In this document: in pieces, positions 13,306 through 59,770 of the stretch
How the letters are laid out: each line of letters starts with the position of its first letter
Position numbering within the stretch: the first letter of the stretch is position 1
The notes under the pieces: model-generated
Database searches by the model: none
What the model saw: the letters and a program-made list of their open reading frames with translations, nothing else
Told to the model about the DNA's origin: nothing
Assembly: GCA_000004985.1 (NCBI GenBank)
Contig: GG738878.1
DNA length: 64,000 bases
Reading direction: 5' to 3' (one strand)
From: Naegleria gruberi
Lineage: Eukaryota
Program-made: the position numbers and the translations under genes

Positions 13306-13609
13306 TTTTTATTAGAAACTTAACGAATTAATTATTTATTATTAGAAAACGTGATATTAATTAATTTACAAATCATTTCTACTTTGATTTTCACAAGTAC
13401 ACTGTCCATCACATTCTCGATCATTGTTGTGAGATTTACGAATCAAAGACCATTCACGTTGATATAAAAAACATGATCAATATCTTGTGAATAATTCTTT
13501 TTGGCAATTGATCTACCTTAATATTTTTCCCTTTATATTTGTTGCTACATTTAAATTCGAATATGGAATACAAAGTTTCTAAAATAAAAATTAATTGGAA
13601 TGGAAAATT

Positions 13610-13700
13610 TGATGAGAGTGGGATTTGAACCCACGCCCTTGCGGAACACGGTATTAATAATACCTTAACGTGTCGTCTTAGACCACTCGACCATCTCACC
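13610..13700 (-). tRNA. tRNA-Leu (anticodon AAG) with putative 11-nt intron after position 37
   Basis: Reverse complement GGTGAGATGGTCGAGTGGTCTAAGACG-ACACG-TTAAGG[TATTATTAATA]C-CGTGT-long variable arm-GTGGGTTCAAATCCCAC-TCTCATC-A; Leu-type D-loop and long variable arm; canonical T-loop. Confidence 0.7.
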
Positions 13701-13813
13701 ATTGAAAAATCGAGTTTTTACTAATATAATATTTTTTGCTTAGCATTGAACTTGGAATATTCAATTTTGAAATAATAATAAAAATAAAATTAAAGTTCAT
13801 TAAGTTCAAAAAA

Positions 13814-27055: not shown

Positions 27056-27127
27056 GCTGGCGTAGCTCAGTCGGTAGAGCGTTGGTCTAATAAGCCATTG
27101 GTCGCCGGTTCGATCCCGTCCGTCAGC
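27056..27127 (+). tRNA. tRNA-Ile (anticodon AAT); anticodon loop CTAATAA
   Basis: GCTGGCG-TA-GCTC-AGTCGGTA-GAGC-G-TTGGT-CTAATAA-GCCAT-TGGTC-GCCGGTTCGATCCCGTC-CGTCAGC; canonical D and T loops; one mismatch each in the anticodon stem (27:43) and T stem (50:64). Confidence 0.65.
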
Positions 27128-27295
27128 AAACATTTTATGAATTAAAACAATAATGTTTACCCTTTTAATTAAAATAAAAATTATATTCTATTTTTTGTTA
27201 AAATCTATTTCCATATTTTTTTGTCATTTAAAATAGAGAACAACTTTCCATGTTACCAATCACCAAACATCAAACATATTACAAATCAAAAAAAA

Positions 27296-43764: not shown

Positions 43765-45507
43765 TTAATAACTTTCATTCATACGAATGGTTTCGAATCG
43801 TTTAATATTCCACAACCATCCCTTTCCAATATCTCCAATATCATTTTGAAAAATATCTAAAAATCTCAAACTTTTCAATTCTGTTGTCCGACAAATATAT
43901 TCAACACCAATGAAGGATATTTGATTATCGCTTATATTAAGCTCTGACACATTATTGAGGTTTGTACTTTGTGCAAGGTATCTGACTCCTTCATCTGAAA
44001 TTTTACATTTTTGTAAAATGAGTTTTCTTAATTTGGAAAAGTTTTCATTCCTTGCAATGTGGAAAGCACCTTCTTTACCAATTGGATTACCAGATAATCT
44101 TATTACCGTTAAATTAATCAAGTATTGGCTTTTACATAGAAAACTGCATCCTAAACTCGTAATTTCTGTCAATCGATAATCAAGACTTGTAAGGTTCACT
44201 AAGGTTGGAGCATTTGCAACTCTTTGACATCCATAATCACCTTCCTCATATATTCCCAGATATTTAACTTTTCCCATATTGTTTCCATTTAAAATTAGTT
44301 CGCAGAGTTCGTCATTGATATGATGTAAGCAAATGTCAAGTTCGGTCAACTTGGAAAAATTGGTGCTTGACATTAATGATGTGAGACCTTCTTGAGTTAA
44401 ATTATTGTAATTGAGGGCAATAGACCGTAAGTTTCCAATAAATTCACTTTCAGCAATACACTTGACGGCTGGATCAGTAATTCCAATTTTACAAATATTC
44501 AATTTTACCAAATTCTGAAAGGCAGGATTTCTTGCCATCTCAATAATTGGATCATTTCCAATTTCCACATTCCTGCTCAGAAACAAATTCTTCAAATTAG
44601 TGAAATTTTGACTTGTTGCAAATGACATCATGCCATCAAAACCAATTTCACAATCGCATGCATTCAGAAGAGTTAAATTGGGCATTTTCTTACATTTTGC
44701 AATCGATCGCATGCCTTCATCACCAATTTTTGTTTTTTCTACAAACAAATTTGTCAAGTTTTTGAAATTCTCTGAACTGCACAGAAAATTCATTCCAATT
44801 TTGGTAATGGCACTTTGGCTAACATCCAAATGAGTTAATTTTGTTAAACATGGACTATTGGCAAGATGATTCATTCCTTCATCTGTAAAATCGTTGTATC
44901 CAATATCCAAATATGTTAAATTTTTTAAATTTTCACAAATGGAAATTGATAAAATTCCCTTATCAGTAATGTAATTTCCATTCAAGTTTAAACTTGTTAA
45001 ACTGTTAGTGATATCTTCAACTATGAAAGTTTCCAAACTGTAGTCTTGAATTCGGTTCAATGGAATGTTCAGCGAACGTAGGTTTCGAATATGAGAATTG
45101 GACGAAATCAAACGTATTCCACTATCTTCCAATCTTGATTCGTCTCTGAATTGACACGAAAAATCCAATTCTGTAATATTTGGAATAAATCTCGATTCTG
45201 AACTTGCCATTTTCTTTAGAATCGAATAAGCGCTTGTTGAACTCTTAATTTTATAGCTCAATTTGACGTGTTGCAGACTTTCGTATAACCATTGCTTGGA
45301 GATTAATGCACAGGTGGTTAGAATAAACTTGAGATCGAGGAAGGTCATGATTTGATAGCAAATATCATCTGGAATATCGAGATGATTGAATTTAGTTTGA
45401 AGTTTCTTTCGTATAAAAAAGTTTGGACATGATTGGGGACTTGATGTGGAATATGGTGTTGAAATTGAAGAAACATCTAAGGTGTAAATTGGATAGGCAA
45501 TCCTCAT
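43765..45507 (-). CDS. F-box-like + RNI-type leucine-rich-repeat protein
   Basis: ICYQIMTFLDLKFILTTCALISKQWL F-box-like; about 18 RNI/AMN1-type LRRs (LxxLxLxxCxIxDxG). Confidence 0.7.
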   Translation of the reverse strand: MRIAYPIYTLDVSSISTPYSTSSPQSCPNFFIRKKLQTKFNHLDIPDDICYQIMTFLDLKFILTTCALISKQWLYESLQHVKLSYKIKSSTSAYSILKKMASSESRFIPNITELDFSCQFRDESRLEDSGIRLISSNSHIRNLRSLNIPLNRIQDYSLETFIVEDITNSLTSLNLNGNYITDKGILSISICENLKNLTYLDIGYNDFTDEGMNHLANSPCLTKLTHLDVSQSAITKIGMNFLCSSENFKNLTNLFVEKTKIGDEGMRSIAKCKKMPNLTLLNACDCEIGFDGMMSFATSQNFTNLKNLFLSRNVEIGNDPIIEMARNPAFQNLVKLNICKIGITDPAVKCIAESEFIGNLRSIALNYNNLTQEGLTSLMSSTNFSKLTELDICLHHINDELCELILNGNNMGKVKYLGIYEEGDYGCQRVANAPTLVNLTSLDYRLTEITSLGCSFLCKSQYLINLTVIRLSGNPIGKEGAFHIARNENFSKLRKLILQKCKISDEGVRYLAQSTNLNNVSELNISDNQISFIGVEYICRTTELKSLRFLDIFQNDIGDIGKGWLWNIKRFETIRMNESY

Positions 45508-45786
45508 TGTATTTGTTGATATAATTTTTTTTAAAAACTAACTGGTTATATTTAGTAGGTAGTTTTTATTCGAAAGTTCATAACCATAGAACAATGAACT
45601 TCAAGTTACAATTCAATTAATTTCTCAGTTTTCAAAACATCAAATGTTATTTCAATTTTGGTCGCATCTAAACGAAACCCAGAACGAAATTCGAAATTCT
45701 ATTGAGAGAATAAATAAATATTAAAAAATTCAACAATAGTTTCAGATAACAACAATTTGAATTTATCCTTTAGTATTTGAATTGAT

Positions 45787-47121
45787 TTATCCTGAAGCAC
45801 CCTTCAAACCACTTTCCAAATGATCAGCTTCACGATTTCTTCTAGTAGAATATTTATCACCAAAGTTTCTCAAATTATTAACCATTCCCTTATAATCATT
45901 CTTAGTCAATTGACCAAAAAATCCAGGAGTGGCCTTCTTAATACTTCCATATTGATGTTGGACACTGTAAGCAACTGATTGGACAGATGATGGCAAATCC
46001 TTGAAATTCTTGACAGCATTTGGATTTTTGGCAGCAGCTGCTTCATAATCTTTGGCCAAGGAGGCAAGTGACTTGTCCATAACTGCCTTATCAATGGCTT
46101 TAGCTTCAGCAGGTGATAGGGATAATGGATTCTTTGATAGGAAATTCTTGGCAGCTTGTTGTTTCAAACCAGTATATGGAGAAAGTTTATCGACTAAACT
46201 AGGTGAAAGTCCAAGAGATTTCAAACCCTTAACATTTTGTTGTCCAATATCGAAACCAGTACCAACAGTAACACCTGATTTACCAACGACAGTACCTGAC
46301 TTGGATTGTGGAACGTAACCCTTAGTAGAGAATGCTTCATTCTTAGTAAGTAAACCCTTATCAATCTTGTAACCAGAAACAGTTGCAACAGAAGCAGCAG
46401 CAGGTTGTTGAGCTAGAGCTCTATTTTTGACAGATGTTTGAATGGCAGCAGCTGTCAACTTTCCAGTGACTGCAGGTTGAGCAGCAAAAGCAGCATTAAA
46501 ACGAGCAGTTAATGAATTGACACGTGGACCCTTAACATTCACAGCAGCAGCCTTAGCCATAGCAGAGAATGCCTTTGCCATATTTGGACCAACTAATCCA
46601 GTAAATGCCTTACTCAATGTAGGACTAACTTTTGAGAATTTACTGGTAATTGAGTTGGCTAATTTGGAAAGAGAAGCACGAGCTTGAGCTGCTTTGAGAC
46701 CTGCAGTACGAGTTCTACCTGCCATTCTACCTGCAAGACCCTTATTTGATTTGGTTGATTTGGAAGATGGTCCAGATCGTCCAGTTTTACCTGATGATCT
46801 ACCATTGGATTTACCACCACTGGATCTTCCATTGGATCTACCTGATCTACCTGATCTACCTGATTGACCACTGGATCTTCCACCTCTGGAACCTCCTCTG
46901 CTACCAGAGCTACCTCCACGGCTACCACCACCTCTGGAACCACCAGAACCTCCACGACCACCACCAGAACCACCGCCACCGCCACCGCCACTGGAACCAC
47001 CCTTGTAAGAATCTGCCAATTCGACAATTTCTGCCAAGAAGGAAGAGGATGCGGAAACTGCAATGATGGACACGGAAAGAATGGCCAAACAACACAAGAT
47101 TGTGAATGAGAGTTTCTTCAT
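45787..47121 (-). CDS. Secreted protein: signal peptide + Gly/Ser/Arg-rich linker + Ala-rich region + C-terminal phage-type (GH24, T4/P22-like) lysozyme-like domain; paralog of 56377..57678
   Basis: MKKLSFTILCCLAILSVSIIAVSA signal; (G/S/R)n linker. C-terminal segments KIDKGLLTKNEAFSTKGYV...VTVGTGFDIGQ, VQSVAYSVQHQYGS...FFGQL and LRNFGDKYSTRRNREADHLESG parallel the T4L/P22 gp19 N-terminal lobe, Q-x-DAL-x-S-x-x-FN-x-G and C-terminal RRxRE motifs. Confidence 0.6.
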   Translation of the reverse strand: MKKLSFTILCCLAILSVSIIAVSASSSFLAEIVELADSYKGGSSGGGGGGGSGGGRGGSGGSRGGGSRGGSSGSRGGSRGGRSSGQSGRSGRSGRSNGRSSGGKSNGRSSGKTGRSGPSSKSTKSNKGLAGRMAGRTRTAGLKAAQARASLSKLANSITSKFSKVSPTLSKAFTGLVGPNMAKAFSAMAKAAAVNVKGPRVNSLTARFNAAFAAQPAVTGKLTAAAIQTSVKNRALAQQPAAASVATVSGYKIDKGLLTKNEAFSTKGYVPQSKSGTVVGKSGVTVGTGFDIGQQNVKGLKSLGLSPSLVDKLSPYTGLKQQAAKNFLSKNPLSLSPAEAKAIDKAVMDKSLASLAKDYEAAAAKNPNAVKNFKDLPSSVQSVAYSVQHQYGSIKKATPGFFGQLTKNDYKGMVNNLRNFGDKYSTRRNREADHLESGLKGASG

Positions 47122-47941
47122 TTCGTTTCGAATATTTTTTTTTAGATGATGAAAGAGTAACTAAATGTTTTTGAGAGTGGATTATTTTGCTGTTTGGTGG
47201 TTACTATAATGTACTCGCAGATTCCTTATTTGGATATTTTTGATTTGAAAGATAAAGTAAGATAATCAATACCGATTACAAAAAGTGAAAGATTACAATT
47301 GTAAAATATTGTAAATTGGGAGAAGGTGGAATAATTTCATTAAGATTTGTTTTATTGAGATTTTTTCAAGATATTTGTAATTTTTATTGTAAAGTGTGAA
47401 ACTGTAGTGAGTTTAGTTTTCTGGATTAGAAATGAAAATTTGAAATAATGCAATGTTTCATCCATATTTATATTGTTTATTCGAAATTTATTCTCCTTGA
47501 AACTGAAAATTATTCAAAGAAACAAAGTCATGAAACTAATCCAAACTGTAAATTGAAACTGTAAATAATTGACAAATATTACAAAAGCATCTCATATCGT
47601 ATAATTCTTCAGTGATGAGGGTTGATAACATGACGACTGCAGAATGCTGCAATTTTCCAATGGTTTGCTTTGGAAATGTCATTTTTATTCGAAACCAGCG
47701 CTTTTATGGACAAAAATGGAAAGAAACATATTTGCTTGTTGATTCATATGTTATTGGCAATGAGAGGAATACAGTCCTATCAAGAATTAGTTTCGTCCAT
47801 CTTTCGAATAACTAGGCTCAAAGATGACCGATATAAAGTGAGACTAATGCGAATTAATACGCCAATGAAAGAAACCATGTTTAAATGTACGATTCTTCAT
47901 ATTGAGATGCCCAATTCATATCAATTCACTCAACAAAAAGA

Positions 47942-48931
47942 ATGTCATCATCACTATTCGAAACCTCATCTGAAATGAAACATTCTTCCACTTTCCAACA
48001 AGAAGATTCCCAACACAACAACATGTACTATCTAAACAATACCTCAAAGACAATCCAAGAAGAACAACCTGAGGTTTTCAAATATTGGAAACATGTCAAG
48101 ATTCTTCTCAAGAACATTTTTATCCTAATCTACTTTTTCTCATCGAGTTTAATAACAAAAATTGTTACCATGTACATGGCCATTCCAAATGTTAAGATTT
48201 CTCAAGCACCTGCTCACGACATTCTTCTTTCCAACTTGACGAAACCTATTCGAATCGCCTTTACTTTATCAGAAACTATCACTGGCTTACTCGTTGTTAT
48301 TCTCATCACCTTGTCAATATTTAACAAAACTCATCGATTCTCCATCATGAGTAGGTTGCTATTCATCGTGGCGAGTATCATGAATTTGAGAGCTGTTTGT
48401 ATTGCTGTTACAACTTTCAGCGTTCCAACAATCGAATATTTGCAAACTTGTGGTCAATTGCAATCGTTGAAACCAGACGAAAGGTTTGTGAGGGCTGTTA
48501 ATATTTTTGGGTTTAGTGGAGGAGAAACGTGTGGAGATTATGTTTTTTCAGGGCATGCAACTTCGTTGAGTGTGGTTTGTTGGTTTGTTTGGTATTATTC
48601 GAATAAGGAATGGGTTGGAAGAATCTGGACGAATCTCTTGCTGATTATTTTGCATATTGTTGGATGTTTGGGAATATTGTTGGCCAAAGAACATTACACA
48701 GTTGATGTTTTACTTGCTTGCACTATTTCTCTTCTGGTTTGTCAATTGTATCATTCGTATTTGAAAGTTGCTTCGCTTGAACCACATTCGAAAGGTTTAT
48801 TCTTTTCAGTAATGGAATTTGACTTGAGTGAAGAAACTGAAAATGTGTTCGACAGCTCGATATTTGGTTATCTTTACGAAAAAATTGATGGAAACAAAAC
48901 TAATTTCGATCTAATCTCAGACAATGTATAA
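47942..48931 (+). CDS. Sphingomyelin-synthase family (SMS/SMSr-like phosphotransferase) membrane protein
   Basis: CGDYVFSGHATSLSVV and HYTVDVLLACTISLLVCQLYH motifs (SMS D3/D4) within a 6-TM core. Confidence 0.7.
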   Translation: MSSSLFETSSEMKHSSTFQQEDSQHNNMYYLNNTSKTIQEEQPEVFKYWKHVKILLKNIFILIYFFSSSLITKIVTMYMAIPNVKISQAPAHDILLSNLTKPIRIAFTLSETITGLLVVILITLSIFNKTHRFSIMSRLLFIVASIMNLRAVCIAVTTFSVPTIEYLQTCGQLQSLKPDERFVRAVNIFGFSGGETCGDYVFSGHATSLSVVCWFVWYYSNKEWVGRIWTNLLLIILHIVGCLGILLAKEHYTVDVLLACTISLLVCQLYHSYLKVASLEPHSKGLFFSVMEFDLSEETENVFDSSIFGYLYEKIDGNKTNFDLISDNV

Positions 48932-48970
48932 TACTAAACTCATTTCTAATAAAATTTATCACTAGGTTTA

Positions 48971-51702
48971 TTAAACTTTCACCTCATCAAGCTCTTGATT
49001 CTTTGCAATTGAAGATGATTTCACATTCGCATACGAAAAATCTGATTTCTGCGTAACTTTCAAATAAACTTCTTCCAAAGTTGTTTGAGAAATTCCCCAA
49101 TCTTTAATTCCTAAAGTTGAATTTTCCAAATCTGAGATTAAATCCGATAATTCTGCAAGTTGCTGCTTGGGAATGTTAAAGATAAAGTTTCCAGCACTTT
49201 CGCTTACAATATTTACATTCGAAATTCGAGAGTTGACCATTGAAATAACATGTTGCTCGTGTCCAGTGTTGGCCACAACCATGAGATTGTAACCACTTCC
49301 ATATTGGGCTTTGATTGAAAGTGAATTTCCAACACATTTCAGTTGACCATGAGCCATGATAGCAATCTTGTCAGATAAATAATCGGCTTCGTCCATGGCA
49401 TGTGTGGTAAGAATCATGGCTCTTCCTTCTTTCATTTTGTGAATTAAATTCCATGCTTTCTTTCTTGAATATGGATCCTAATGAGGTGAATAAAGAAAAC
49501 TAAAGTTGTGAATAAACTTACCAAACCAGTGGTTGGCTCATCTAAGAGAACCAACTTTGGATTACCAATACAAGCAATACAAATGGATAATCTTCTCTTC
49601 ATACCACCTGAATAAGTCTTTGTCAAGTGATGGCCAACTTTTGACAAGTCAACCGATTCCAAAAAGTTGCTAACTTGTTCAGTTCTTTGTTTTCTTGGAA
49701 CTCCTTTCAAATCTCCAAACAATTCCAAATGCTCCTCAGCTGTCAAATCGTCCCACAAAATATCATGTTGTGGACACATTCCCAATTGCTTTCGAATATC
49801 TTCCATCGAATCTCTCACATTCAATCCAGCAATGAAAGCTTCACCAGATGATTGCTGGAACAGCCCAGTCAAAATATTCATTGTGGTTGATTTACCAGCT
49901 CCATTATGGCCCAACAAACTAACACATTGATTATCTTGCACAATTAAATTCAAACCTTTGAGAGCTTTCTTCTCAGAGAAGAATTTTCTAAATTTGGCGG
50001 GAAGAATTTTCAAAGCAATTTTGGCCAAGAATGAAGAAAATGTTCTTCTCAGTGAGATGATTCTGACAATGGCATTCTGATTGAAATCACGTGCCTTGGA
50101 AAACTCATTCTTTATATCTTGAGTTTCCATTTGATGCATATCAGTTTCGTCATTTGCATCAAGTTTCGACTTGGATTTCCATCTATTAATTCCCCAATAC
50201 GAAGGATATAAGAAGAAAATTGGTGACTTTCTAACACCATTTCCATCAGAAATTACATTATCACAATACCAATACAAGACGAGAAACAATAACCCATTAA
50301 GGAAAAGTGTTAAAATTCCCAACCACGAACCAGGAACATAATCGTAAGTGTTCTTTCCAATAAATAAATCTTCGATTGTGTAACCTGGACCAGTAACGTA
50401 CTTTCTTTGTGTGGAATCGTAAACTGGCAATGCTTTTACAGCAATGTCAATGAAAACCTTGGCAAAGTTGAAAGGTGGATAGAAGGAGAAGATTACAACT
50501 ATGAGAGGAGTGATGGAAGAGGAATAGAGCATGTAGACAATGTTACTATTCGAAACTGTCAAGTTCAAAATCTGAATCATGTTAATTTGAATGTGATGTT
50601 AATGAATAGTACTTACAAAGGAAATTGCCAAAACTGTAAATCCCAAAACTAGAGCAGATTTCGATTCCTTGATAAAAGTTGATAATAGGAAAGCTAAACA
50701 AATCAAGGAAAATGTGAAACTAAAGAATAATACATAAAGAACAATAAAGTCAGTATTCAAAAAGATTGAAATTTGAAAGATCATGCCACCAATCACATTG
50801 ACCAATGAGAAAACGGCACAGATAATCAAGAATGTAATGAACCATGATAGGAAATAGGCAGATTCTTTCATTCCCATCATAATCATGGCAAATCTTAGAC
50901 GAAACTCCTTCTCAACAACCAAACTATTCAATGAAATAATCAAGACAATCATGGCTCCAATACTAAAGAAGGTTGGTCCTGAATAATTGTACAATAAAAC
51001 TTCTCCATTCTTACTTTGAGGAGGTTGTGGAAAACTCTTAAAGTCAACCTGAATTGAATTTCTAGAATCAGCAAGTTCTTGAGTTCTGCCCAAATCTTTC
51101 ATTCTCAAATAAACAATGTTATTGTCAATTAGATTTTGTAAGGAGAGGAGTGGAGTTTTCAAATCCTCTCTAGTTCTATTATAGTACATGGTATATGAAA
51201 TGGTATCAATGGTATCTAGTGGACCATTTGGAATGAATGAAATACCAAACATGGTTTGATTTTGATGAGTGTACATCCAATTTTCCATCTCACTTTTGGT
51301 TGTAAACATTTTGTAATCAGTGTCTTGTTTCAAATTGTAATCAGAAATTAACAATTCCATTACCTTCTCTCCAAATGAAATACCATTAGCAGAATAAACT
51401 AATTTGTAACAAGCTCTTCCACCATTCGGTTTGCATTCGTAAAATTTTAAAGCAATTCCATTGTCATACGATTGTTGAGTTGGCACTTGAATTCCCTTAT
51501 GAATTAGCTCAATTGGCTGATGAATTGCACTCTCACCTGAAAAGTTAGCTTGCAAAACCTCCTTCATGACCACCAAAATCACCAAAATAATAATGGGAGA
51601 CAGCAATTGCATTCCAGTAGATTTCCATCTTCTTGTATAGAGCAGGAAATTCTTCTTTAACAAAATGAGCGTTTGTTTCAACACCTCCAACAGATAATTC
51701 AT
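48971..51702 (-). CDS. Half-size ABCA-type ABC transporter (TMD-NBD), at least 3 exons: 51702..50617, 50571..49522, 49477..48971
   Basis: ABCA-style N-terminus (NYLLEVLKQTLILLKKNFLLYTRRWK) with TM1 then a large extracellular loop; Walker A GHNGAGKST, signature YSGGMKRRLS, LLDEPTTGL|DP split by a 44-nt GTAAGT intron; second intron GTAAGT...ATTCAG (50572..50616). Confidence 0.75.
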
Positions 51703-52004
51703 AATAATAGTATTGAACAAGAAAGTGTTGTTGAGACTTTTTTCTAATTGAGAGAGGAAGCATATGTTTCATTGGCACACGATTTTGAATGAGCTGTGAT
51801 TCGTAGGTGCGAACTTGTGGCAGTTAGCTGAGCTGTAAATTAGTTGGAGGTGAGAAGATCCTCCTTTTCAAACAATGTTAGAGAACGGAGAGTGCGATTG
51901 GAAGAGTCTGTTTGAACTTGTTGATAAGGGAGAAGCGAATTTGTTATTATTGTTTTTCATTAATCATTAAAAAACAAAAGTAAATCTCCAACCAATTAGA
52001 TCAT
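51703..52004. promoter_or_regulatory. Divergent shared promoter between the two half-ABCA genes
   Basis: ~300-bp spacer between head-to-head starts. Confidence 0.45.
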
Positions 52005-55000
52005 ATGAAAGAAACAAAGATTTTGGATGAGAATAGTGGTGGTGCTACTGCTACTACTACTGGCCAATCAGTGACAACTCCCATCGATTGTGATGATTTG
52101 TTAATGAAGAGTCGTGCTGGTAAGGAGTTGAATCAAGTGAGAGCATTGTTGTACAAATCATTGATGTTGCAAATGAAGCAATACAAGTAGGTTATTTCAT
52201 TGTTAATATTAGTATTCATGTATATTGTATTTTGTTCAACAAATACAGGTCAAATATTTGTCAATTGATATTCCCAGTCATTTGTTTAATGTTCATTTAC
52301 GTTTTACAAATAGTTGCAAATAGATTGATTGCAGGATTCTTTACAGGCAATGAGGGAGCTGCAGCAGTTGTTAGAATCAACTCTACATCTGTTGAACTTT
52401 CTCAACTCATGTATCAAGCAAAGATGCAAGCTCAAAACTTGACATTTAATCCTCCAGAGTCCCTCTTTTTCACCTCTGATAAGAATGACTATTTGAATAG
52501 TATTGGATTTGGTACCATGTCCTCTAATCAGTCTGGATCTAGTGGTTTCTTGGCTAATTTTTCTCCATGGTCCAGAAGTTCAGTCATGATGTTAGTGAAT
52601 GGTACCTTTGATGAGAAGGGAATGATTTCAATTCCATACTCTGTAACCTCTGCTTTTGGTAATGAAAGTACTATGGATGAAGTCATCTATGATAGAATGG
52701 GTGCTGTGGGAAAACTGAAAACTTGGATGCTGTTGGTGCCTATATTGTAAGAAAGTTGGACACCTCTGGTATCAATTACACTGTACAATTTGATTACCAT
52801 GAAAAGACTCAATTCTTTGCTGAATTCCTCTCAAAATCACCACTCACCTATATTGTTACAAGTGCTAGAGATGCTATTAGTGTTTCTCTTCAGAATTGGA
52901 TGAATGATGCCTTCCTGAAAAATCTTACTGGCTCTTTCAGAATTAGAACCTATACAGCTCAAATGACCTATGATACTCAATTAATTTCCTTCAGACTTTC
53001 TGACATGTTAGGTTCCTTCTTCTTTCCACTAATTCTTTCTCTATTATTACCAACATTTACCTTTACCATTGTTATGGAGAAGCAATACAAGTTGAGAGAA
53101 ATGATGAAATTGATGGGTATGAAGATGAGATATTACTTTTTGGTAACTTATGTATTTTTCTATGCAATGTATGCCCTCTCTGCTATTTTGTTCATCATCT
53201 TTTCTATTGCCTTTGATTTTAGATTTATAACCCAGACACATCCATTAATGTTAAGTAAGTATTCATTGCTTTTTCACATATATTTAACCAGGATACTTTA
53301 GTTTTCTTCTTCCTGTTGTGGGGAAATGTATTGATTAGTTTTTCATTCCTATTATCTTCGTTCATTGGTAAGACAATTGTAGCTACTATTGTTTCCTACT
53401 TGTTTGTTCTGATTGGACCAATGGTTGGTGTCCTTCTTGAACAAGCTCTCTATCCAAGTGCACCAGATGCAAGATATGGTCTCCTCTTATTGTTCCCTCT
53501 CCAAATTACTCACTTTGTCTTTGCTGCAACCAATTCATGTAATAACAATGCATGTTTGACAGATGTGGCTGATATTGTAAATAATGTATCTGTCCTCAGC
53601 TCACTTCTTTACATGTTGGGAGTTTCAGTGTTGTACTTCATATTGGGTCTGTACTTTGATGCCATTATTCCACAAACATTTGGTATAAGTAAACATCCAT
53701 TGTTCTTCCTGGAGTGGATGTGGAGGCCGTGTATTAAACGTCGTCTGAAGAGAGCTAAAAAGCACACTGAAAGTAAGAATCAAGTCCAACCATTTGGAGA
53801 TGAAGAAGGTGCTATTGATTACAATACCTCCGAAGTAATGGACAGTGATGTAGCTGAGGAGTTTAACAAGGTTAATCCAAGTAATATCACAGACAATGAA
53901 ATGCAAGAGCATGCTAGAAAATTGAAGGAAGAGCATGGTGTTGTCCTTTTCAATTTGGAAAAGAGTTTTGGAGGTAATAAGGCTGTTAAAGGTACCTGTC
54001 TCACTATTGGCAAATCTGAATGCTTTGGTTTGCTAGGTCTTAATGGAGCTGGTAAATCAACAACCATCTCAATGTTAGCAGGAATGTTTGGTCCAAGTTC
54101 TGGAACTGCATTTGTGTGCGGTAAAGATATTAGATATGACATGGACAGTATCCATCAAGTAATGGGCTTGACAGCACAATTTGATATTTTGTATCCTGAT
54201 TTGAGTTGTGAAGACCATTTACTCTTCTATTCCAGAATGAAGGGTGTGAAAATCAAGCACGAGAAGGAACACGTCCAATCTCTATTAAAACAAGTAGGTC
54301 TAGATAATGAAACTCTCAAAGTGAGATTCTCTCCAGCATCCAGCTCACTTTCAGGAGGTATGAAGAGAAGATTATCCATTGCCATTTCACTAATTGGTGA
54401 TCCGAAAGTAATCCTACTCGATGAGCCAACCACTGGACTGGATCCACTCTCCAAGAGACACTTGTGGGATATCATTCTCGCTCAAAAGAAGAATAGAACT
54501 GTCATTTTGACCACTCACTCCATGGAAGAAGCTGATGCCTTATGTGATCGAATGACCATCATGGTAAAAGGTTCTTTCAAATGCTTAGGTTCTGGTTTAA
54601 GATTGAAAAACAAGTTCGGAGATGGCTATTTGATGACCATCAGTTACCAACCAGAGAACCAAAACATTGCCGAGAAGTATGTCTACGATTACGTACCAGA
54701 GGCTGTGAAGGATCTGACTCTGAGTGGCATAACCATCTTCAAAATACCTCACCTTAATGCTCCTCATTCTCATCAAATAACAACAACAACAACAACAAAT
54801 CAAAACAGCAGCATAAGCCATAATAATAATAGTAGTGGGGAAAAGAATAGAACATTGGCTGGTTTGTTTAAACATATGGAAAGTGGAAAGGATCATCACG
54901 GAATTGAAGAGTGGGCTTTAAATCAAGTTTCATTAGAACAAGTCTTTTTGAATATAATTTCGAGTGATGCAAAGAGAAATCCATTGAAGGATGAATCCAA

Positions 55001-55043
55001 GTGGAAGCGATTAGCAACCATGTTCAAGCAATGTATCCATTGA
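52005..55043 (+). CDS. Half-size ABCA-type ABC transporter (TMD-NBD), at least 4 exons: 52005..52186, 52249..~52720, ~52723..53270, 53316..55043
   Basis: Intron 1 GTAGGT...ATACAG (52187..52248); TM1 then a large extracellular loop; Walker A LGLNGAGKST, signature LSGGMKRRLS, Walker B ILLDEPTTGLD; GTAAGT intron ~53271..53315; one junction near 52723 changes frame and is unresolved. Confidence 0.7.
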
Positions 55044-55305
55044 GAGACCATTCTGTGCACTGTGTAAATAATAAAATTGTGCTCATCACATGATGTATTT
55101 TATTTTAAAAAATAATTTTAATTAAAAAATGGAAATTTGGATTGGCGAATACTCCATCTTACATGGTGGTTGTAAAAACTATATCACAATATTATTACAA
55201 TGACATGGCACAATGTCCAATTTGCTTCCATTTTCACAAATCATATTTTATGCTTTTTCCGGTTGGCTTCCAATCAAACTCTAAAAAAAAAAATAACAAG
55301 ACAAT

Positions 55306-56136
55306 ATGAAGCAAACCTTTTTCATTTTGGTTGTTGCTTTGATATTAGCCTTCGTAGGAGGTTTGGTCAGCGCCGATGTGATCGATCACACCAATAGAAT
55401 TCTCCCAGCGACTACTCCATATCATATGGGTATTTTACATACTTTTGATCCATTTACTTCATCATGGTCCTTTTATTGTAATAGACCAGGTGCCGGACCT
55501 GGAACAAACGATCAATTGGGTATTGTTGTTAATATGGGAAGTGATATTAGAATAATTGGTCCTAAAGTGTATAATGATGATAGTAATTTCCAAGTTGGTA
55601 TTCAAGGGGGAGAGACTGGCAAGATTATTGATTTGGGTACTGAAGATGATGTCAGCAAAACTTATGGTTGTTCAAACTGTTTTACTGGTATTAAATTTAG
55701 TAGTGATGGAGTTGTTTCAGTTTTAGATAAGACAAAGAATTTGAAGCCAATTGACCTTACTGCCATGACAGTGGATCATGCTTCAATTAAAGTAGGTCAT
55801 ATTTACTTGGTCAAGATTAGCAATGGAAATGATGATACTGCTCTTTTTGTAAAGTTTATTGCTACCTCAGTTCTTTATGGAGCAAACAATGCTGTGGAAA
55901 CTGTAACAATGAGACATCAACCAATGTATGTTAAAATTTCACAATCAACTGGAAGAGATTGCTCAGGTCATGTAGATCTTAATTCTGTTGTGGCTCAAGC
56001 TGAAACTGGAATTAGTTTGGCTGTTATTGGATTGGTGGCTACCATTTTCATTGGTGTTGGAAATGTTGCCTTCTTAATTTATTATTTTGCATTTGCAAAG
56101 GGAAAGAGAGGTGGTGTTTATGGAACTCTCCAATAA
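55306..56136 (+). CDS. Signal-peptide protein with C-terminal TM anchor, unknown function
   Basis: MKQTFFILVVALILAFVGGLVSA signal; C-terminal hydrophobic ISLAVIGLVATIFIGVGNVAFLIYYFAFA. Confidence 0.5.
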   Translation: MKQTFFILVVALILAFVGGLVSADVIDHTNRILPATTPYHMGILHTFDPFTSSWSFYCNRPGAGPGTNDQLGIVVNMGSDIRIIGPKVYNDDSNFQVGIQGGETGKIIDLGTEDDVSKTYGCSNCFTGIKFSSDGVVSVLDKTKNLKPIDLTAMTVDHASIKVGHIYLVKISNGNDDTALFVKFIATSVLYGANNAVETVTMRHQPMYVKISQSTGRDCSGHVDLNSVVAQAETGISLAVIGLVATIFIGVGNVAFLIYYFAFAKGKRGGVYGTLQ

Positions 56137-56376
56137 CTCAATAATAATAACATTCGAATGCTTTTAATATTTCTTATTTCACCATTTTGTAATAGTGTTG
56201 GGTATCATTATTATAATCTGATTCCAATACATTATCTTGGAACATGTTAAAATACAAGAACTCATATTTCTGTCAAATTTCATTATAATCTCCACACGAT
56301 TGCAATCATTGAATGATTTTGTATGGTTTAATTTTAGCCAACTGACATCTCCAGTTAACTCATCATTCAAAAAAAT

Positions 56377-57678
56377 ATGAAAACATCTCTCTTGGTTTTA
56401 TGCACCTTGATGGTACTCTGTGTATCCATTATGGCTGTGTCTGGCTCCTTCTTGGAACAAATTGTGGAAATGTCACTTTCTGATTCTAGAAGTTTCAAGT
56501 CGGGTGGTGGTAGCTCTGGAGGAGGTAGCAAATCTGGAAGCAGTAGCAGCAGCTCTGGAAAGTCATCCAGTAAGTCATCCTCATCCTCCAGTAAGAGTAC
56601 TAGCTCTAGTAAAACCTCCACTTCAAAGAGTTATAGCAAGTCAACTGTCTCATCAAAGATGGCCTCAGCTTATTCTCAATATGCTAACAGTAGAATTGCT
56701 GGTATGAAGAATCCAGCCAGCACCATGGCTGGTCTCAAAGCTGCCAATTTGAATGCTCGTTTAAGTGCTCAACCAACTGCTACTGTCAATGGTAAATTGA
56801 CTGCTGCTGGTATCAAGGCCTCTTATCAAAATCGATTGAATACAAGAGTTGCTGCTGCCTATCAACAATATGCTCAATCCAGAATGGCTGCTGCCAAACC
56901 AACTGCTAAGCCAACCAATATTGCTGCAGCTTATCAACAATACGCCCAATCTAGAATTGCTGGTATGAAGAATCCTGCTAGCACTTTGTCTAAACCAACT
57001 GCCAAACCTGCCAATATTGCTGCTGCCTATCAACAATATGCTCAGTCCAGAATTGCTGGTTTGAAGAATCCTGCCAGTACTCTCCCAGGTAGTTTCAAGA
57101 TTGATAAGGGTTTGCTTACTGTTAATGAAGGTAAACCTGCCACTACTGGTTACGTTCCACAATCCAAGGCAGGTACTGTCATTGGTAAATCAGGTGTTAC
57201 TGTTGGTACTGGATTCGATGTTGGTCAACAAAATGTTAAGGGTTTGAAAGCTCTTGGACTTTCACCAAGTTTAGTCGACAAGCTTTCTCCATACACTGGA
57301 TTGAAGCAACAAGCAGCTAAGGACTTTTTGGCTAAGAATCCATTGTCCCTATCGCCTGCTGAAGTTGCATCCATTGATAAGGCAGTTATGGACAAGTTTT
57401 CTGCCAATTTGGCCAAAGATTATGCAGCTGCTGCTGCCAAGAATCCAACTGCTGTCAAGAATTTCAAGGATTTGCCAGCTCCTGTCCAATCAGTTGCTTA
57501 CAGTGTCTACCATCAATATGGAAGCTTCTCCAAGACTCCAAGCTTCATGAACAAGTTGGCCACCAATGATTACAATGGAATGGTTCATGAATTGAGAAAC
57601 TTTGGTGATTCTTACTCAACAAGAAGAAATCGTGAAGCTGATCATTTGGAAAGTGGTTTGAAGGCTGCTTCAGGATAA
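56377..57678 (+). CDS. Secreted protein: signal peptide + Gly/Ser-rich linker + AAYQQYAQSRIAGMKNPAST repeats + C-terminal GH24 phage-type lysozyme-like domain; paralog of 45787..47121
   Basis: MKTSLLVLCTLMVLCVSIMAVSG signal; C-terminal ~200 aa about 80% identical to the paralog (…STRRNREADHLESGLKAASG). Confidence 0.6.
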   Translation: MKTSLLVLCTLMVLCVSIMAVSGSFLEQIVEMSLSDSRSFKSGGGSSGGGSKSGSSSSSSGKSSSKSSSSSSKSTSSSKTSTSKSYSKSTVSSKMASAYSQYANSRIAGMKNPASTMAGLKAANLNARLSAQPTATVNGKLTAAGIKASYQNRLNTRVAAAYQQYAQSRMAAAKPTAKPTNIAAAYQQYAQSRIAGMKNPASTLSKPTAKPANIAAAYQQYAQSRIAGLKNPASTLPGSFKIDKGLLTVNEGKPATTGYVPQSKAGTVIGKSGVTVGTGFDVGQQNVKGLKALGLSPSLVDKLSPYTGLKQQAAKDFLAKNPLSLSPAEVASIDKAVMDKFSANLAKDYAAAAAKNPTAVKNFKDLPAPVQSVAYSVYHQYGSFSKTPSFMNKLATNDYNGMVHELRNFGDSYSTRRNREADHLESGLKAASG

Positions 57679-57774
57679 ATAAATTCTAATGTTGTTGCCA
57701 TCTCTGAACATACTGGAATATTGTCTCAAGTTTTGAATGCCTAGATTATATATTTGAGAATTATCTTGGAATAG

Positions 57775-59602
57775 TTAAAATCTCTTCCTCCTAATCAATT
57801 CAACCACCTCACTCATAAATTCCCTATCCTTGATGAGTTCTGGAGAAATAGATGTTAGAGAGCTGATTCCATGTATATTGAACAAATTCTCATCATGTTC
57901 CAACGCTGTGAGAACCACTTCCTTGTCCCTCTTAATTCTCTCATCGAACAATTGCAACAATGGGCCACTAATGGCTACAACTTGCAATGCAAATGATTTG
58001 TTGTGAAATAGTCCAGGTTGGAATAGCTTGAGTTTGAAAAGAGAGAAGGGATTTGACTTGCAAGCTTCGATAATCATATCAAAATCATCCTTGAATTTGG
58101 TCTTGTGAAGAAGATAGCCATTCTTTCTGATAGCTTCCAAGACGAAATCTCTGTTACCTGTTAGATCTGGGTGCAGGTAGCAATTTTCAGAATCTTTGGA
58201 TCCAATCGAATCAAGTACGAATTCCTTATTGAGTTGGAATGATTCGTGTGCGTATTCAAGTGCAGAGCTGTTCTGTTTCACTGCTGTTCGAATAATTTCC
58301 TCGTCCATCTTTAAATCATCACTAGCAAATTGTAAATCAGAACCTCTTCTTGCAACAGCTGTTAATACAATCTCTCTATCGCAGCGAAACCCTTCTGGTG
58401 TTACTGAGAGTGACATTCCATTCCTAACAAGGTTCATCACAACATTCCTATTCTTCATTAAAGAATCATTTATACCCTTCAAAGAGGTAATTTTGAAATT
58501 ATCTAAACAATGGTTAATAAACTCCTCGTCCTGTTTTAAATCTTTTGAAATGAAAGGAAATGCTTCCAAACTATTATTCATGGCTTCCAAAGCTATGACC
58601 TTATCTGATTTTAGAGATTGAGAAGCAAACTTTAACGATCCACCATTAGACTTAACTGCCTCTAAAACAATCTCCCTATCACTCCTTAACAGATCACTTG
58701 CATGATTCAAGTCATTTCCACAAGCTCTGACACATTTCAATACCAAATCTCTGTCCTCTCTGGCATCATCATTAAAGTAATCCAAACATCCACTTAATTC
58801 TACTCCAATACATGCTTCCATCACTTCCCTATCAGAGAAAACCTCAAATGGTAATTGATTAAGAGCAATCTTTGTTCCTTTCAAGGCTTCCAAAATCACA
58901 AATTTATCATTTTGCAAATCATCATCCAGCATTATGTAATTTCTAAAGTTATTCCTCACAGCTGTCAATATTAATTCTCTATCACTAACCAACAATTCAT
59001 CACTGATATACTCTGTAATAGAATGGCCAGTTTGAGCTGCAACCATCAACAATTCCCTATCATTGGAAATTAATTCGGAATAATCTTGCTCTTCTTCATC
59101 AGTGCGATGAGAGGATGGCAACGATTCCAAATAATTAAGCAATATATTAATACTCAAACCTCGCCTAATAGCTTGCAAGAATAATTCTCTACTACTTGGT
59201 GTTGTATTCATCAAATAATCTTCATACAAGACACTTAATTTAGAGAGAAACTTTTCCGATTTGAAACACAATACATCATCATTACCTTCATCACTTGTCT
59301 GCATTGTAGAATAATAGCTTGCACCAAAAATCAAAGGATTCCTTGATAAATTCATCATCCAAATAATCAAAGCAATCTAAATTGATGGTGGTAATGGCTT
59401 GAATAATCTTCTCTCGATCGGAAATGAATTTTACAAGTGATGGATATGAAGAAAGAGTTTTTAAGAGTTTGTTTTCGAGAATTTCAGTTTGATATTTGAA
59501 TTGCAGTAAATCTGAGGTTGATGATTGGAAATGATCGAGTAAAATTACGACTAGATGTTCCTTCATTTTTTTTGTCTTTTCAATATATTGATTTAGATGC
59601 AT
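57775..59602 (-). CDS. DUF4116-repeat protein (two ORFs, 59291..59602 and 57775..59370, overlapping in different frames)
   Basis: ~10 tandem ~38-aa repeats of the REIVLxAVxxNGxxLxFASxxLKxDxE form. Confidence 0.55.
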
Positions 59603-59697
59603 CTGTTACTCATCCGTAAGGTTTAAGTTGTTTCCTTAATAAATAAACATTGTTATTACATACTATATCATTGCATATTTCACAAATTTGATGTGAG

Positions 59698-59770
59698 CGC
59701 CGTTAGATCAGTTGGTTAGATCGTCAGCTTTACACGCTGAAGGTCAAGGGTTCGACTCCCTTACGGCGTA
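59698..59770 (+). tRNA. tRNA-Val (anticodon TAC)
   Basis: GCGCCGT-TA-GATC-AGTTGGTTA-GATC-G-TCAGC-TTTACAC-GCTGA-AGGTC-AAGGGTTCGACTCCCTT-ACGGCGT-A; G1:U72 wobble. Confidence 0.8.

Follow-up and report, generated by a model that had tools for sequence, protein, structure and literature searches.

Introduction

Muramidases of the Pfam family PF16754 (Pesticin), described there as 'bacterial toxin homologue of phage lysozyme, C-term', comprise the activity domain of pesticin (Pst) of Yersinia pestis, T6SS (type VI secretion system) effectors such as Vibrio TssI2/VgrG3, and phage endolysins. The active-site residues of pesticin are Glu178, Thr201 and Asp207 (PMC9620997). Here we analyse two genes with this domain, referred to as copy A and copy B, which lie in inverted orientation within a stretch of 64 kb (the window) on a 395-kb scaffold of the free-living amoeba Naegleria gruberi NEG-M. 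We argue that the pair probably derives from an old inverted duplication, and that the catalytic domain, but not the rest of the genes, was later homogenised in patches by interlocus gene conversion that is itself not very recent.

Two bodies of knowledge are relevant to such a locus. On one hand, eukaryotes are known to have taken antibacterial enzymes from bacteria or phages, as exemplified by the GH25 muramidases found across the domains of life and by the dae amidases that ticks and further animals carry. On the other hand, interlocus conversion between paralogs is familiar from the arms of the primate Y-chromosome palindromes, from globin and opsin duplicates, and from RHD/RHCE, where selection retains replacements as silent sites become homogenised. 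A multi-gene lysozyme arsenal has been reported for Naegleria (PMC9928731). Pesticin-type genes are not mentioned in the Naegleria literature that we searched, and no relevant mention of pesticin in Naegleria or in eukaryotes was met in the literature searched, the Naegleria pangenome paper among it; both genes are already named in public databases as pesticin-domain proteins.

Results

The gene pair and its inverted repeat

Copies A and B are paralogous open reading frames (ORFs) on opposite strands, found at exactly the coordinates that an earlier note on this DNA had given for two lysozyme-like genes, and they are transcribed outward from a block of 9,255 bp (Table 1). Both are without introns; their content of guanine and cytosine (GC) is 38-39% and their codons are host-like. 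The window as a whole is AT-rich (32-39% GC) and eukaryotic in character, with genes split by introns.

At the DNA level, blastn aligns positions 46373-45775 with 57092-57690 in a single alignment of 603 nucleotides (nt), with 84.6% identity and an E-value of 0. No other repeat in the window is as strong; the match is far above chance, and the window contains no third copy. A separate repeat search recovers two sub-arms, one of 383 nt (45944-46326/57142-57524, 88%) and one of 135 nt (45775-45909/57556-57690, 87%); the longest perfect run between the arms is 43 nt. The inverted repeat over the catalytic-domain region that the note had expected from a DNA alignment is therefore real, but at 84.6% it is not the near-identical segment that had been described. 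Nor does the similarity reach beyond the arms to any extent: the 5' flanks show no similarity above that of shuffled sequences, while on the 3' side what is shared amounts to about 19 nt (p about 0.03). The identity of more than about 90-95% through coding and flanking DNA that marks a recent segmental duplication is not observed. Two ORFs antisense to the genes, at 46052-46318 on the plus strand and 57225-57416 on the minus strand, do encode the nearly identical peptides that had been quoted as a sign of high nucleotide identity; both start with TTG and not with ATG, and the likeness of the peptides follows from the nucleotide identity of the two genes being read on the opposite strand.

A silent-site mosaic

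Calculated by the method of Nei and Gojobori over the whole domain, silent divergence (dS) is 0.37 and replacement divergence (dN) is 0.13; in the signal-peptide region the uncorrected proportion of silent differences (pS) is 0.75. As a control for codon bias, we compared the share of identical codons at identical amino acids with the share expected from the genes' own codon usage. In the domain 131 of 155 codons are identical, against 82-88 expected, a number that was reached in 0 of 5000 simulations; in the N-terminal part the count is 32/72, against 29.7 expected. When only the hand-checked homologous islands of the N-terminal part are considered (the signal peptide, SFLxxIVE, AGLKAA… and GKLTAA…), 19 of 40 codons are identical, as compared to the 131/155 of the domain (Fisher p 3.7e-6). 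Thus, silent sites are of different age in the N-terminal and the catalytic half of this pair, a pattern that a single whole-gene duplication cannot yield.

Silent differences are also clustered inside the domain (bin-variance permutation p about 0.01), where three tracts of low dS alternate with two saturated islands (Table 1). Pooled, the tracts have 102/107 codons identical at identical amino acids and a dS of 0.12, while the islands have a pS of 0.70 and are indistinguishable from saturation. The value of 0.70 holds for each of the islands, although they differ as proteins: in island 1 the amino acids are identical at 28 of 30 positions (dN 0.03), in island 2 at 21 of 33. Tract 2 carries 11 amino-acid replacements, several of them through codons with multiple hits. 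Tract 3 holds the longest perfect run of the repeat, and there the identity runs 12 nt beyond the stop codon.

Could such a pattern arise without any event at the DNA level, in an old pair whose likeness is due only to purifying selection at the protein level and to a strong bias in codon usage? The genes do use a biased set of codons (GGT, GCT, ACT, CAA, AAT), the domain is strongly conserved across its family, and the two islands and the N-terminus behave precisely in this way. In the tracts this explanation is refuted by the excess of identical codons over the 82-88 that codon usage predicts, which is just as evident tract by tract (43 of 46 against 25.1 expected for tract 1 as first delimited, at residues 247-306; 42 against 24.0 and 17 against 9.7 for tracts 2 and 3; P at most 5e-5 each), as well as by the extension of the identity past the stop codons; as an account of the whole locus we consider it very unlikely. 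The note had named conservation at the protein level only as the finding that would speak against its proposal: this does not describe the domain as a whole, but it does describe the two intradomain islands and the N-terminal half.

The second possibility to be weighed is that the whole gene was duplicated recently in inverted orientation, and that the N-terminal half then diverged fast under relaxed or positive selection. In its favor, the two copies are by far each other's closest relatives (81% identity in the domain, versus at most 48% to anything else), and their linkers are of low complexity, prone to repeats, and able to change fast at the protein level. Fast protein evolution, however, does not raise silent divergence, and silent-site saturation is seen in the signal peptide and the linker islands, which are not repetitive (the 19/40 given above). 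Saturated islands occur inside the domain as well, one of them being its best-conserved protein segment (island 1), and similarity of the flanking DNA ends within about 19 nt. We regard a recent duplication as unlikely, and this part of the earlier proposal finds no support; the gene conversion offered there as its alternative is supported by the bimodal silent divergence along the gene, with tracts of dS about 0.1 beside islands of pS about 0.70.

A third reading would have the silent sites of the tracts held in place by an overlapping element, either the antisense ORFs or an RNA structure. Antisense ORFs of 88 and 63 codons with nearly the same peptide are indeed present in the two copies, and a ratio of replacement to silent differences (pN/pS) of about 1, as seen in the tracts, is a pattern that overlapping constraints can give. 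Their extent does not match the mosaic: the antisense ORF corresponding to copy A residues 268-356 covers tract 1, the whole of island 1 with its saturated silent sites, and a portion of tract 2, while tract 3 and the identity in the 3' untranslated region (UTR) lie outside. Since it runs across low-dS as well as saturated segments and lacks an ATG start (both ORFs begin with TTG, in a eukaryote, with no in-frame ATG start as listed), and since antisense similarity follows automatically from nucleotide identity, we find this explanation hardly credible.

The reading that we favor, and hold to be probable, begins with an inverted duplication of old date, after which interlocus gene conversion, itself not very recent, affected the catalytic domain in patches. 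A whole gene would have been duplicated long ago in inverted, head-to-head orientation, with silent sites then drifting to saturation. The duplication would have been a single event, subsequent to the gain of signal peptide and linker, because homology between the copies includes the signal peptide, SFLxxIVE and the islands of the linker. At a later time, parts of the catalytic domain, each of them short, would have been copied between the loci by non-allelic conversion, leaving at least three converted tracts of roughly 70-170 nt, with two unconverted islands of about 90-100 nt between them. As the tracts have since diverged to a dS of about 0.1, the conversion would not be recent. Its direction is suggested by the third codon positions: in copy B their GC is 48% in the islands, 34% in the N-terminal half and 26% in the tracts (p 0.004), whereas in copy A it is 24-25% in all three. 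The tracts of copy B thus bear the codon style of copy A, which suggests that conversion went mainly from A into B.

Table 1. Features of the copy A/copy B locus. Positions are those of the window; codon counts are identical codons at identical amino acids, residues are those of copy A, and aa stands for amino acids.
Feature	Position	Position in copy B	Strand	Description
Copy A	45787..47121		minus	444-aa predicted secreted pesticin-domain protein; ORF with exact protein match EFC42738.1 / XP_002675482.1
Copy A layout				Signal peptide (hydrophobic N-terminus), Gly/Ser/Arg/Ala-rich linker, C-terminal muramidase domain
Copy B	56377..57678		plus	433-aa ORF; GenBank EFC42638.1 'pesticin domain-containing protein', 422 aa from second Met (56410)
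Copy B layout				Signal peptide, Ser-rich linker, AAYQQYAQSRIAG-type repeats, C-terminal muramidase domain
Copy B linker repeat array	56635..57081		plus	4 copies of a 24-32-aa unit (…AAYQQYAQSRIAGMKNPAST…); from repeat search and Tandem Repeats Finder (TRF)
Left arm	45775..46373		minus	Copy A catalytic-domain coding region, stop codon and 12 nt of 3' UTR
Right arm	57092..57690		plus	Copy B catalytic-domain coding region, stop codon and 12 nt of 3' UTR
Low-dS tract 1	46204..46320	57148-57264	minus	Residues 268-306; holds catalytic Thr285 and Asp291
Saturated island 1	46114..46203	57265-57354	minus	Residues 307-336; codons 16/28
Low-dS tract 2	45946..46113	57355-57522	minus	Residues 337-392; codons 42/44, expected 24.0
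Saturated island 2	45844..45945	57523-57621	minus	Residues 393-426; codons 13/20
Low-dS tract 3	45775..45843	57622-57690	minus	Residues 427-444, stop codon and 12 nt of 3' UTR; codons 17/17, expected 9.7
Block gene 1	47942..48931		plus	Sphingomyelin-synthase-like PAP2_C membrane protein, EFC42635.1; Pfam PF14360, E 5e-22
Block gene 2	48971..51720		minus	ABCA-type half transporter (ABC2_membrane_3 + ABC_tran); three ORFs split by introns
Block gene 3 (ABCA2)	52232..55043		plus	Another ABCA-type half transporter; product annotated as P0169 (958 aa)
Block gene 4	55306..56136		plus	276-aa predicted membrane protein, EFC42637.1
Outer neighbour of copy A	43765-45507		minus	F-box/LRR_6 protein, 580 aa; unrelated to the inverted repeat
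Outer neighbour of copy B	57775-59370		minus	Protein with 9 DUF4116 repeats, 531 aa; unrelated to the inverted repeat

Amino-acid differences within the tracts

The low-dS tracts (tract 1 being counted here from residue 268) contain 16 codons with a replacement and 4 with silent changes only; 6 of the replacement codons have been hit more than once (P 0.004 versus random placement). The pN/pS of about 1 in the tracts differs from the 0.2 (uncorrected) of the islands (p 0.007 for the contrast of replacement to silent changes). Three processes might account for the replacements: selection may keep paralog-specific residues despite conversion, repair of the heteroduplex may have been patchy, or the proteins may have diversified after conversion.

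This ratio is one of several points that weigh against a history of duplication and conversion, as a pN/pS of about 1 is unlike the outcome of clean conversion plus purifying selection, and an added assumption of selection or of patchy repair is needed. Furthermore, the comparison is based on two sequences only, the codon counts per segment are small (17-58), and the boundaries of tracts and islands were set after inspection, so that the p-values for individual segments are optimistic. For this reason we let the argument be carried by the tests that do not depend on boundaries, which are the codon-usage simulation, the contrast between domain and N-terminus, and the bin-variance permutation (p about 0.01). 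Finally, that N. fowleri and other Naegleria lack the gene, as discussed below, is read from hit lists and not from a genome-wide tblastn.

If the pieces are joined more boldly, selection would keep the two muramidases distinct while conversion, mainly from A to B, erases their silent differences again and again; the surviving replacements would then mark residues of specificity, and occasional crossovers could flip the intervening block and swap the linkers. The residues in question may be 340-342, 351-354, 378-379 and 388, together with the changes beside the catalytic Glu, in what may be a bacterial weapon repurposed for feeding or defence. We offer this combined reading as a speculation that is rather improbable as a whole.

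Identity of the catalytic domain

The term 'lysozyme-like' used in the note is correct and can be made precise on the strength of the Pfam family, the catalytic triad and the fold. Against a gathering cutoff of 25.8 bits, PF16754 matches copy A at residues 252-411 with 236.7 bits (E 1.3e-70) and copy B at residues 241-400 with 231.1 bits (E 7.2e-69), both matches spanning positions 1-156 of the 156 in the profile. In a sequence search of the PDB only chains of Y. pestis pesticin match (E about 1e-13), over chain residues 178-347, which correspond to the activity domain. The pesticin residues Glu178, Thr201 and Asp207 align to E262, T285 and D291 of copy A and to E251, T275 and D281 of copy B, and this Glu/Thr/Asp triad is invariant in an alignment of 41 sequences of the family. 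An AlphaFold2 model of the copy A domain has a predicted local distance difference test (pLDDT) score of 96.1 and a predicted template modelling (pTM) score of 0.88; compared with the PDB by Foldseek, it has pesticin (4epf/4aqn) as its best match (TMq 0.86, root mean square deviation 2.3), followed by T4 lysozyme. The translocation and FyuA receptor-binding domains that form the N-terminal part of Pst (residues 1-166) are seen in neither copy, and because of their absence the two proteins should be viewed as members of the pesticin-type muramidase family rather than as pesticin bacteriocins.

By these criteria copies A and B are predicted secreted muramidases of the pesticin C-terminal, T4-lysozyme-like family. 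In a bacterivorous amoeba their role would likely be the cleavage of peptidoglycan glycan strands, either in phagosomes or after secretion.

The N-terminal halves

The N-terminal 240-250 residues of both proteins consist of a hydrophobic, signal-peptide-like start followed by low-complexity sequence, and no Pfam or NCBIfam family scores above threshold in either. Homologous parts of the two halves are the signal peptide, SFLxxIVE and the linker islands. In copy B the ORF reaches 11 codons upstream of the annotated start, to the ATG at 56377, and translation from there gives a signal peptide homologous to that of copy A (MKTSLLVLCTLMVLCVSIMAVS vs MKKLSFTILCCLAILSVSIIAVS). The annotated start is thus probably too short, as EFC42638.1, read from the second Met, would omit 11 signal-peptide codons.

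The linkers differ in the manner claimed for them: that of copy A is rich in Gly, Ser and Arg, whereas that of copy B is rich in Ser and carries 4 copies of a AAYQQYAQSRIAG-type repeat. The pattern of the repeat unit is AAYQQYAQSRIAG[ML]KNPAST…KPTAKP…, and the last two units form a 96-nt tandem with 85% identity (TRF period 96, score 281). Copy A has no counterpart of this array. Its own linker, at 46659-47066, contains short repeats of 9, 21 and 27 nt, and yields long spurious ORFs in other frames or on the opposite strand (46659-47063, 46746-47066 and 46864-47109), which are not genes.

Relatives and origin of the domain

An exhaustive HMMER search of 1.84 billion representatives returned 1804 relatives of the domain, among which only the two N. 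gruberi proteins, 81% identical to each other in the domain, exceed 48% identity to the query. The named relatives are bacterial (Agarivorans, Anabaena, Pseudomonas, Marivita), some of them with the domain fused to WXG100, LysM or M23. Viral contigs, screened as a possible donor or as a link to giant viruses, carry the domain only on phage-sized molecules and with at most 44% identity. The only other named eukaryote among the best matches is Saccoglossus kowalevskii. In a neighbour-joining tree the two Naegleria domains are sisters, roughly equidistant from all others.

No protein of N. fowleri or of any other heterolobosean appears in the hit lists of the exhaustive or profile searches, to which this statement applies rather than to a genome-wide tblastn, although the collection includes N. 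fowleri. This suggests an acquisition restricted to a lineage, or a loss elsewhere. Metagenome contigs of the Joint Genome Institute (JGI), scanned with the alignment of the two copies, gave 593 pattern matches and 0 relatives. A scan of the same resource with a degenerate DNA pattern for RRNREADHLE gave three contigs of 60% GC, none of them Naegleria-like; two encode relatives with 36% identity, and the third has no tblastn match. Look-ups by exact protein in an index of contigs (copy A, copy B from either start, the 276-aa protein and ABCA2) gave no record of the locus in another assembly. A single-sequence protein search with a word index found 12 relatives, one of which had a named source (bacterial), but this search missed both the query and its 81% paralog and is not evidence of absence.

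In the light of these matches, the domain would most likely have been acquired from a bacterium or a phage, and have gained its eukaryotic signal peptide and disordered linker thereafter. Two independent transfers of related bacterial genes, contamination, or an artefact of assembly could also be imagined as the origin of the two copies, given that the family is otherwise overwhelmingly bacterial or phage and that neither gene has introns. Outside the domain matched by bacteria and phages, however, both copies share homologous eukaryotic-type signal peptides and linker islands; their GC and codons are those of the host; they reside on a 395-kb N. gruberi scaffold surrounded by intron-containing eukaryotic genes; and they are sisters at 81%, versus at most 48% to any other sequence. 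Contamination and two independent transfers are ruled out by the combination of GC, codon usage, a eukaryotic N-terminal module common to both copies, and neighbours with introns, and we give such origins practically no probability.

The intervening block

The content of the block is as the note described it: a sphingomyelin-synthase (SMS)-like PAP2_C protein, two genes for ABCA half transporters, and a protein of 276 aa that is hydrophobic at its N-terminus, carries a further hydrophobic segment at its C-terminal end, and has no Pfam or NCBIfam match above threshold. Another protein, P0015, clusters with the latter at 90% identity and comes from an ENA contig of 1277 bp that may be N. gruberi-like DNA in another data set.

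The ABCA genes are arranged head-to-head about 510 bp apart, and this makes the locus look mirrored (Pest-…-ABCA / ABCA-…-Pest). A young mirrored duplication of ABCA and pesticin genes together was considered and is ruled out. The two ABCA genes have only about 28-45% amino-acid identity over most aligned segments, with about 70% in one short conserved stretch, and ABCA2 has both its nearest N. gruberi paralog on another scaffold (P0171, 68%) and an orthologue in N. fowleri (P0170, 67%). On these comparisons the two read as ancient paralogs. In its gene content the 9.25-kb block is ordinary for Naegleria. Around the N. fowleri orthologue of ABCA2, the 10 kb to each side contain no pesticin gene, no SMS-like gene, no gene for the 276-aa protein and no second ABCA gene; as that locus shares none of the neighbouring genes, synteny gives no date for the pesticin arrangement.

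It had also been proposed that inverted repeats of this kind promote inversion of the block between them. Its orientation would then be polymorphic. The geometry permits inversion, as the inverted arms are 10.7 kb apart; were a crossover to fall inside the domain, the block would flip and each 3' end would receive the N-terminal module of the other gene, with both reading frames intact. Past conversion moreover implies that the arms have physically paired, and conversion can come with crossover. But homologous crossover depends on sequence identity, and arms of about 85% (here 84.6%), with perfect runs of no more than 43 nt, are a poor substrate. A scan of flanking ORFs, namely the LRR/F-box and DUF4116 proteins and not the whole window, turned up no recombinase. 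No evidence of inversion was seen in the one assembly analysed, and we judge it unlikely that the arms act in this way.

Elsewhere in the window ARAGORN calls three tRNA genes, at 13609-13701(-), 27056-27128(+) and 59697-59770(+). The calls comprise a tRNA-Ile(AAT), a tRNA-Val(TAC) and one of 93 nt without an assigned anticodon, possibly containing an intron.

Discussion

The enzyme family at this locus is known, and so is the evolutionary process; the value of the case is modest and lies in documenting that a free-living amoeba used as a model has a lineage-restricted pair of peptidoglycan hydrolases whose type is bacterial or phage. It also corrects the view of the locus as a near-identical repeat prone to inversion. 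From the methodological point of view it is a compact example, with only two sequences, in which a silent-site mosaic tells a recent duplication apart from one that is old and was followed by patchy conversion. Should the replacements that survive be adaptive, they would point to residues that set the substrate range of pesticin-type lysozymes, which are of interest as enzybiotics.

With the bacterial members of PF16754 and the activity domain of pesticin the Naegleria copies share the family, the Glu/Thr/Asp triad, the conserved Gln of the QYG motif and the T4-lysozyme-like fold. They differ from those members in being devoid of FyuA-binding and translocation domains and of VgrG, WXG100, LysM and M23 partners, in having instead a eukaryotic-style signal peptide and a low-complexity linker of 200 aa, and in residing in a eukaryotic host, where an immunity gene is neither expected nor seen; they are at most 48% identical to those members. 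As to the acquired antibacterial enzymes of eukaryotes, the likeness consists of a peptidoglycan hydrolase of bacterial or phage type in a bacterivorous eukaryote, a secretion signal and a duplication in the lineage; the family, in contrast, is the pesticin type, and transfer and activity in Naegleria are read from sequence.

A parallel in another eukaryote is that of the acorn worm (hemichordate) S. kowalevskii, in which LOC100370085 (P0017) and LOC100370384 (P0018) encode 4 and 3 pesticin domains in tandem, and one of the two proteins begins like a signal peptide. These are multi-domain animal proteins with 33-36% identity, and their domains match the copy A query less well than do many bacterial proteins, so that a separate acquisition appears more likely, as far as a neighbour-joining tree can tell.

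Finally, as in the known systems of interlocus conversion, the Naegleria paralogs are inverted on one chromosome, their silent sites form a mosaic of short tracts, and amino-acid differences persist within those tracts. They depart from such systems in that the arms are short (0.6 kb) and 15% diverged, in that the conversion is old (dS about 0.1) rather than ongoing, and in that it would have affected the catalytic half only.

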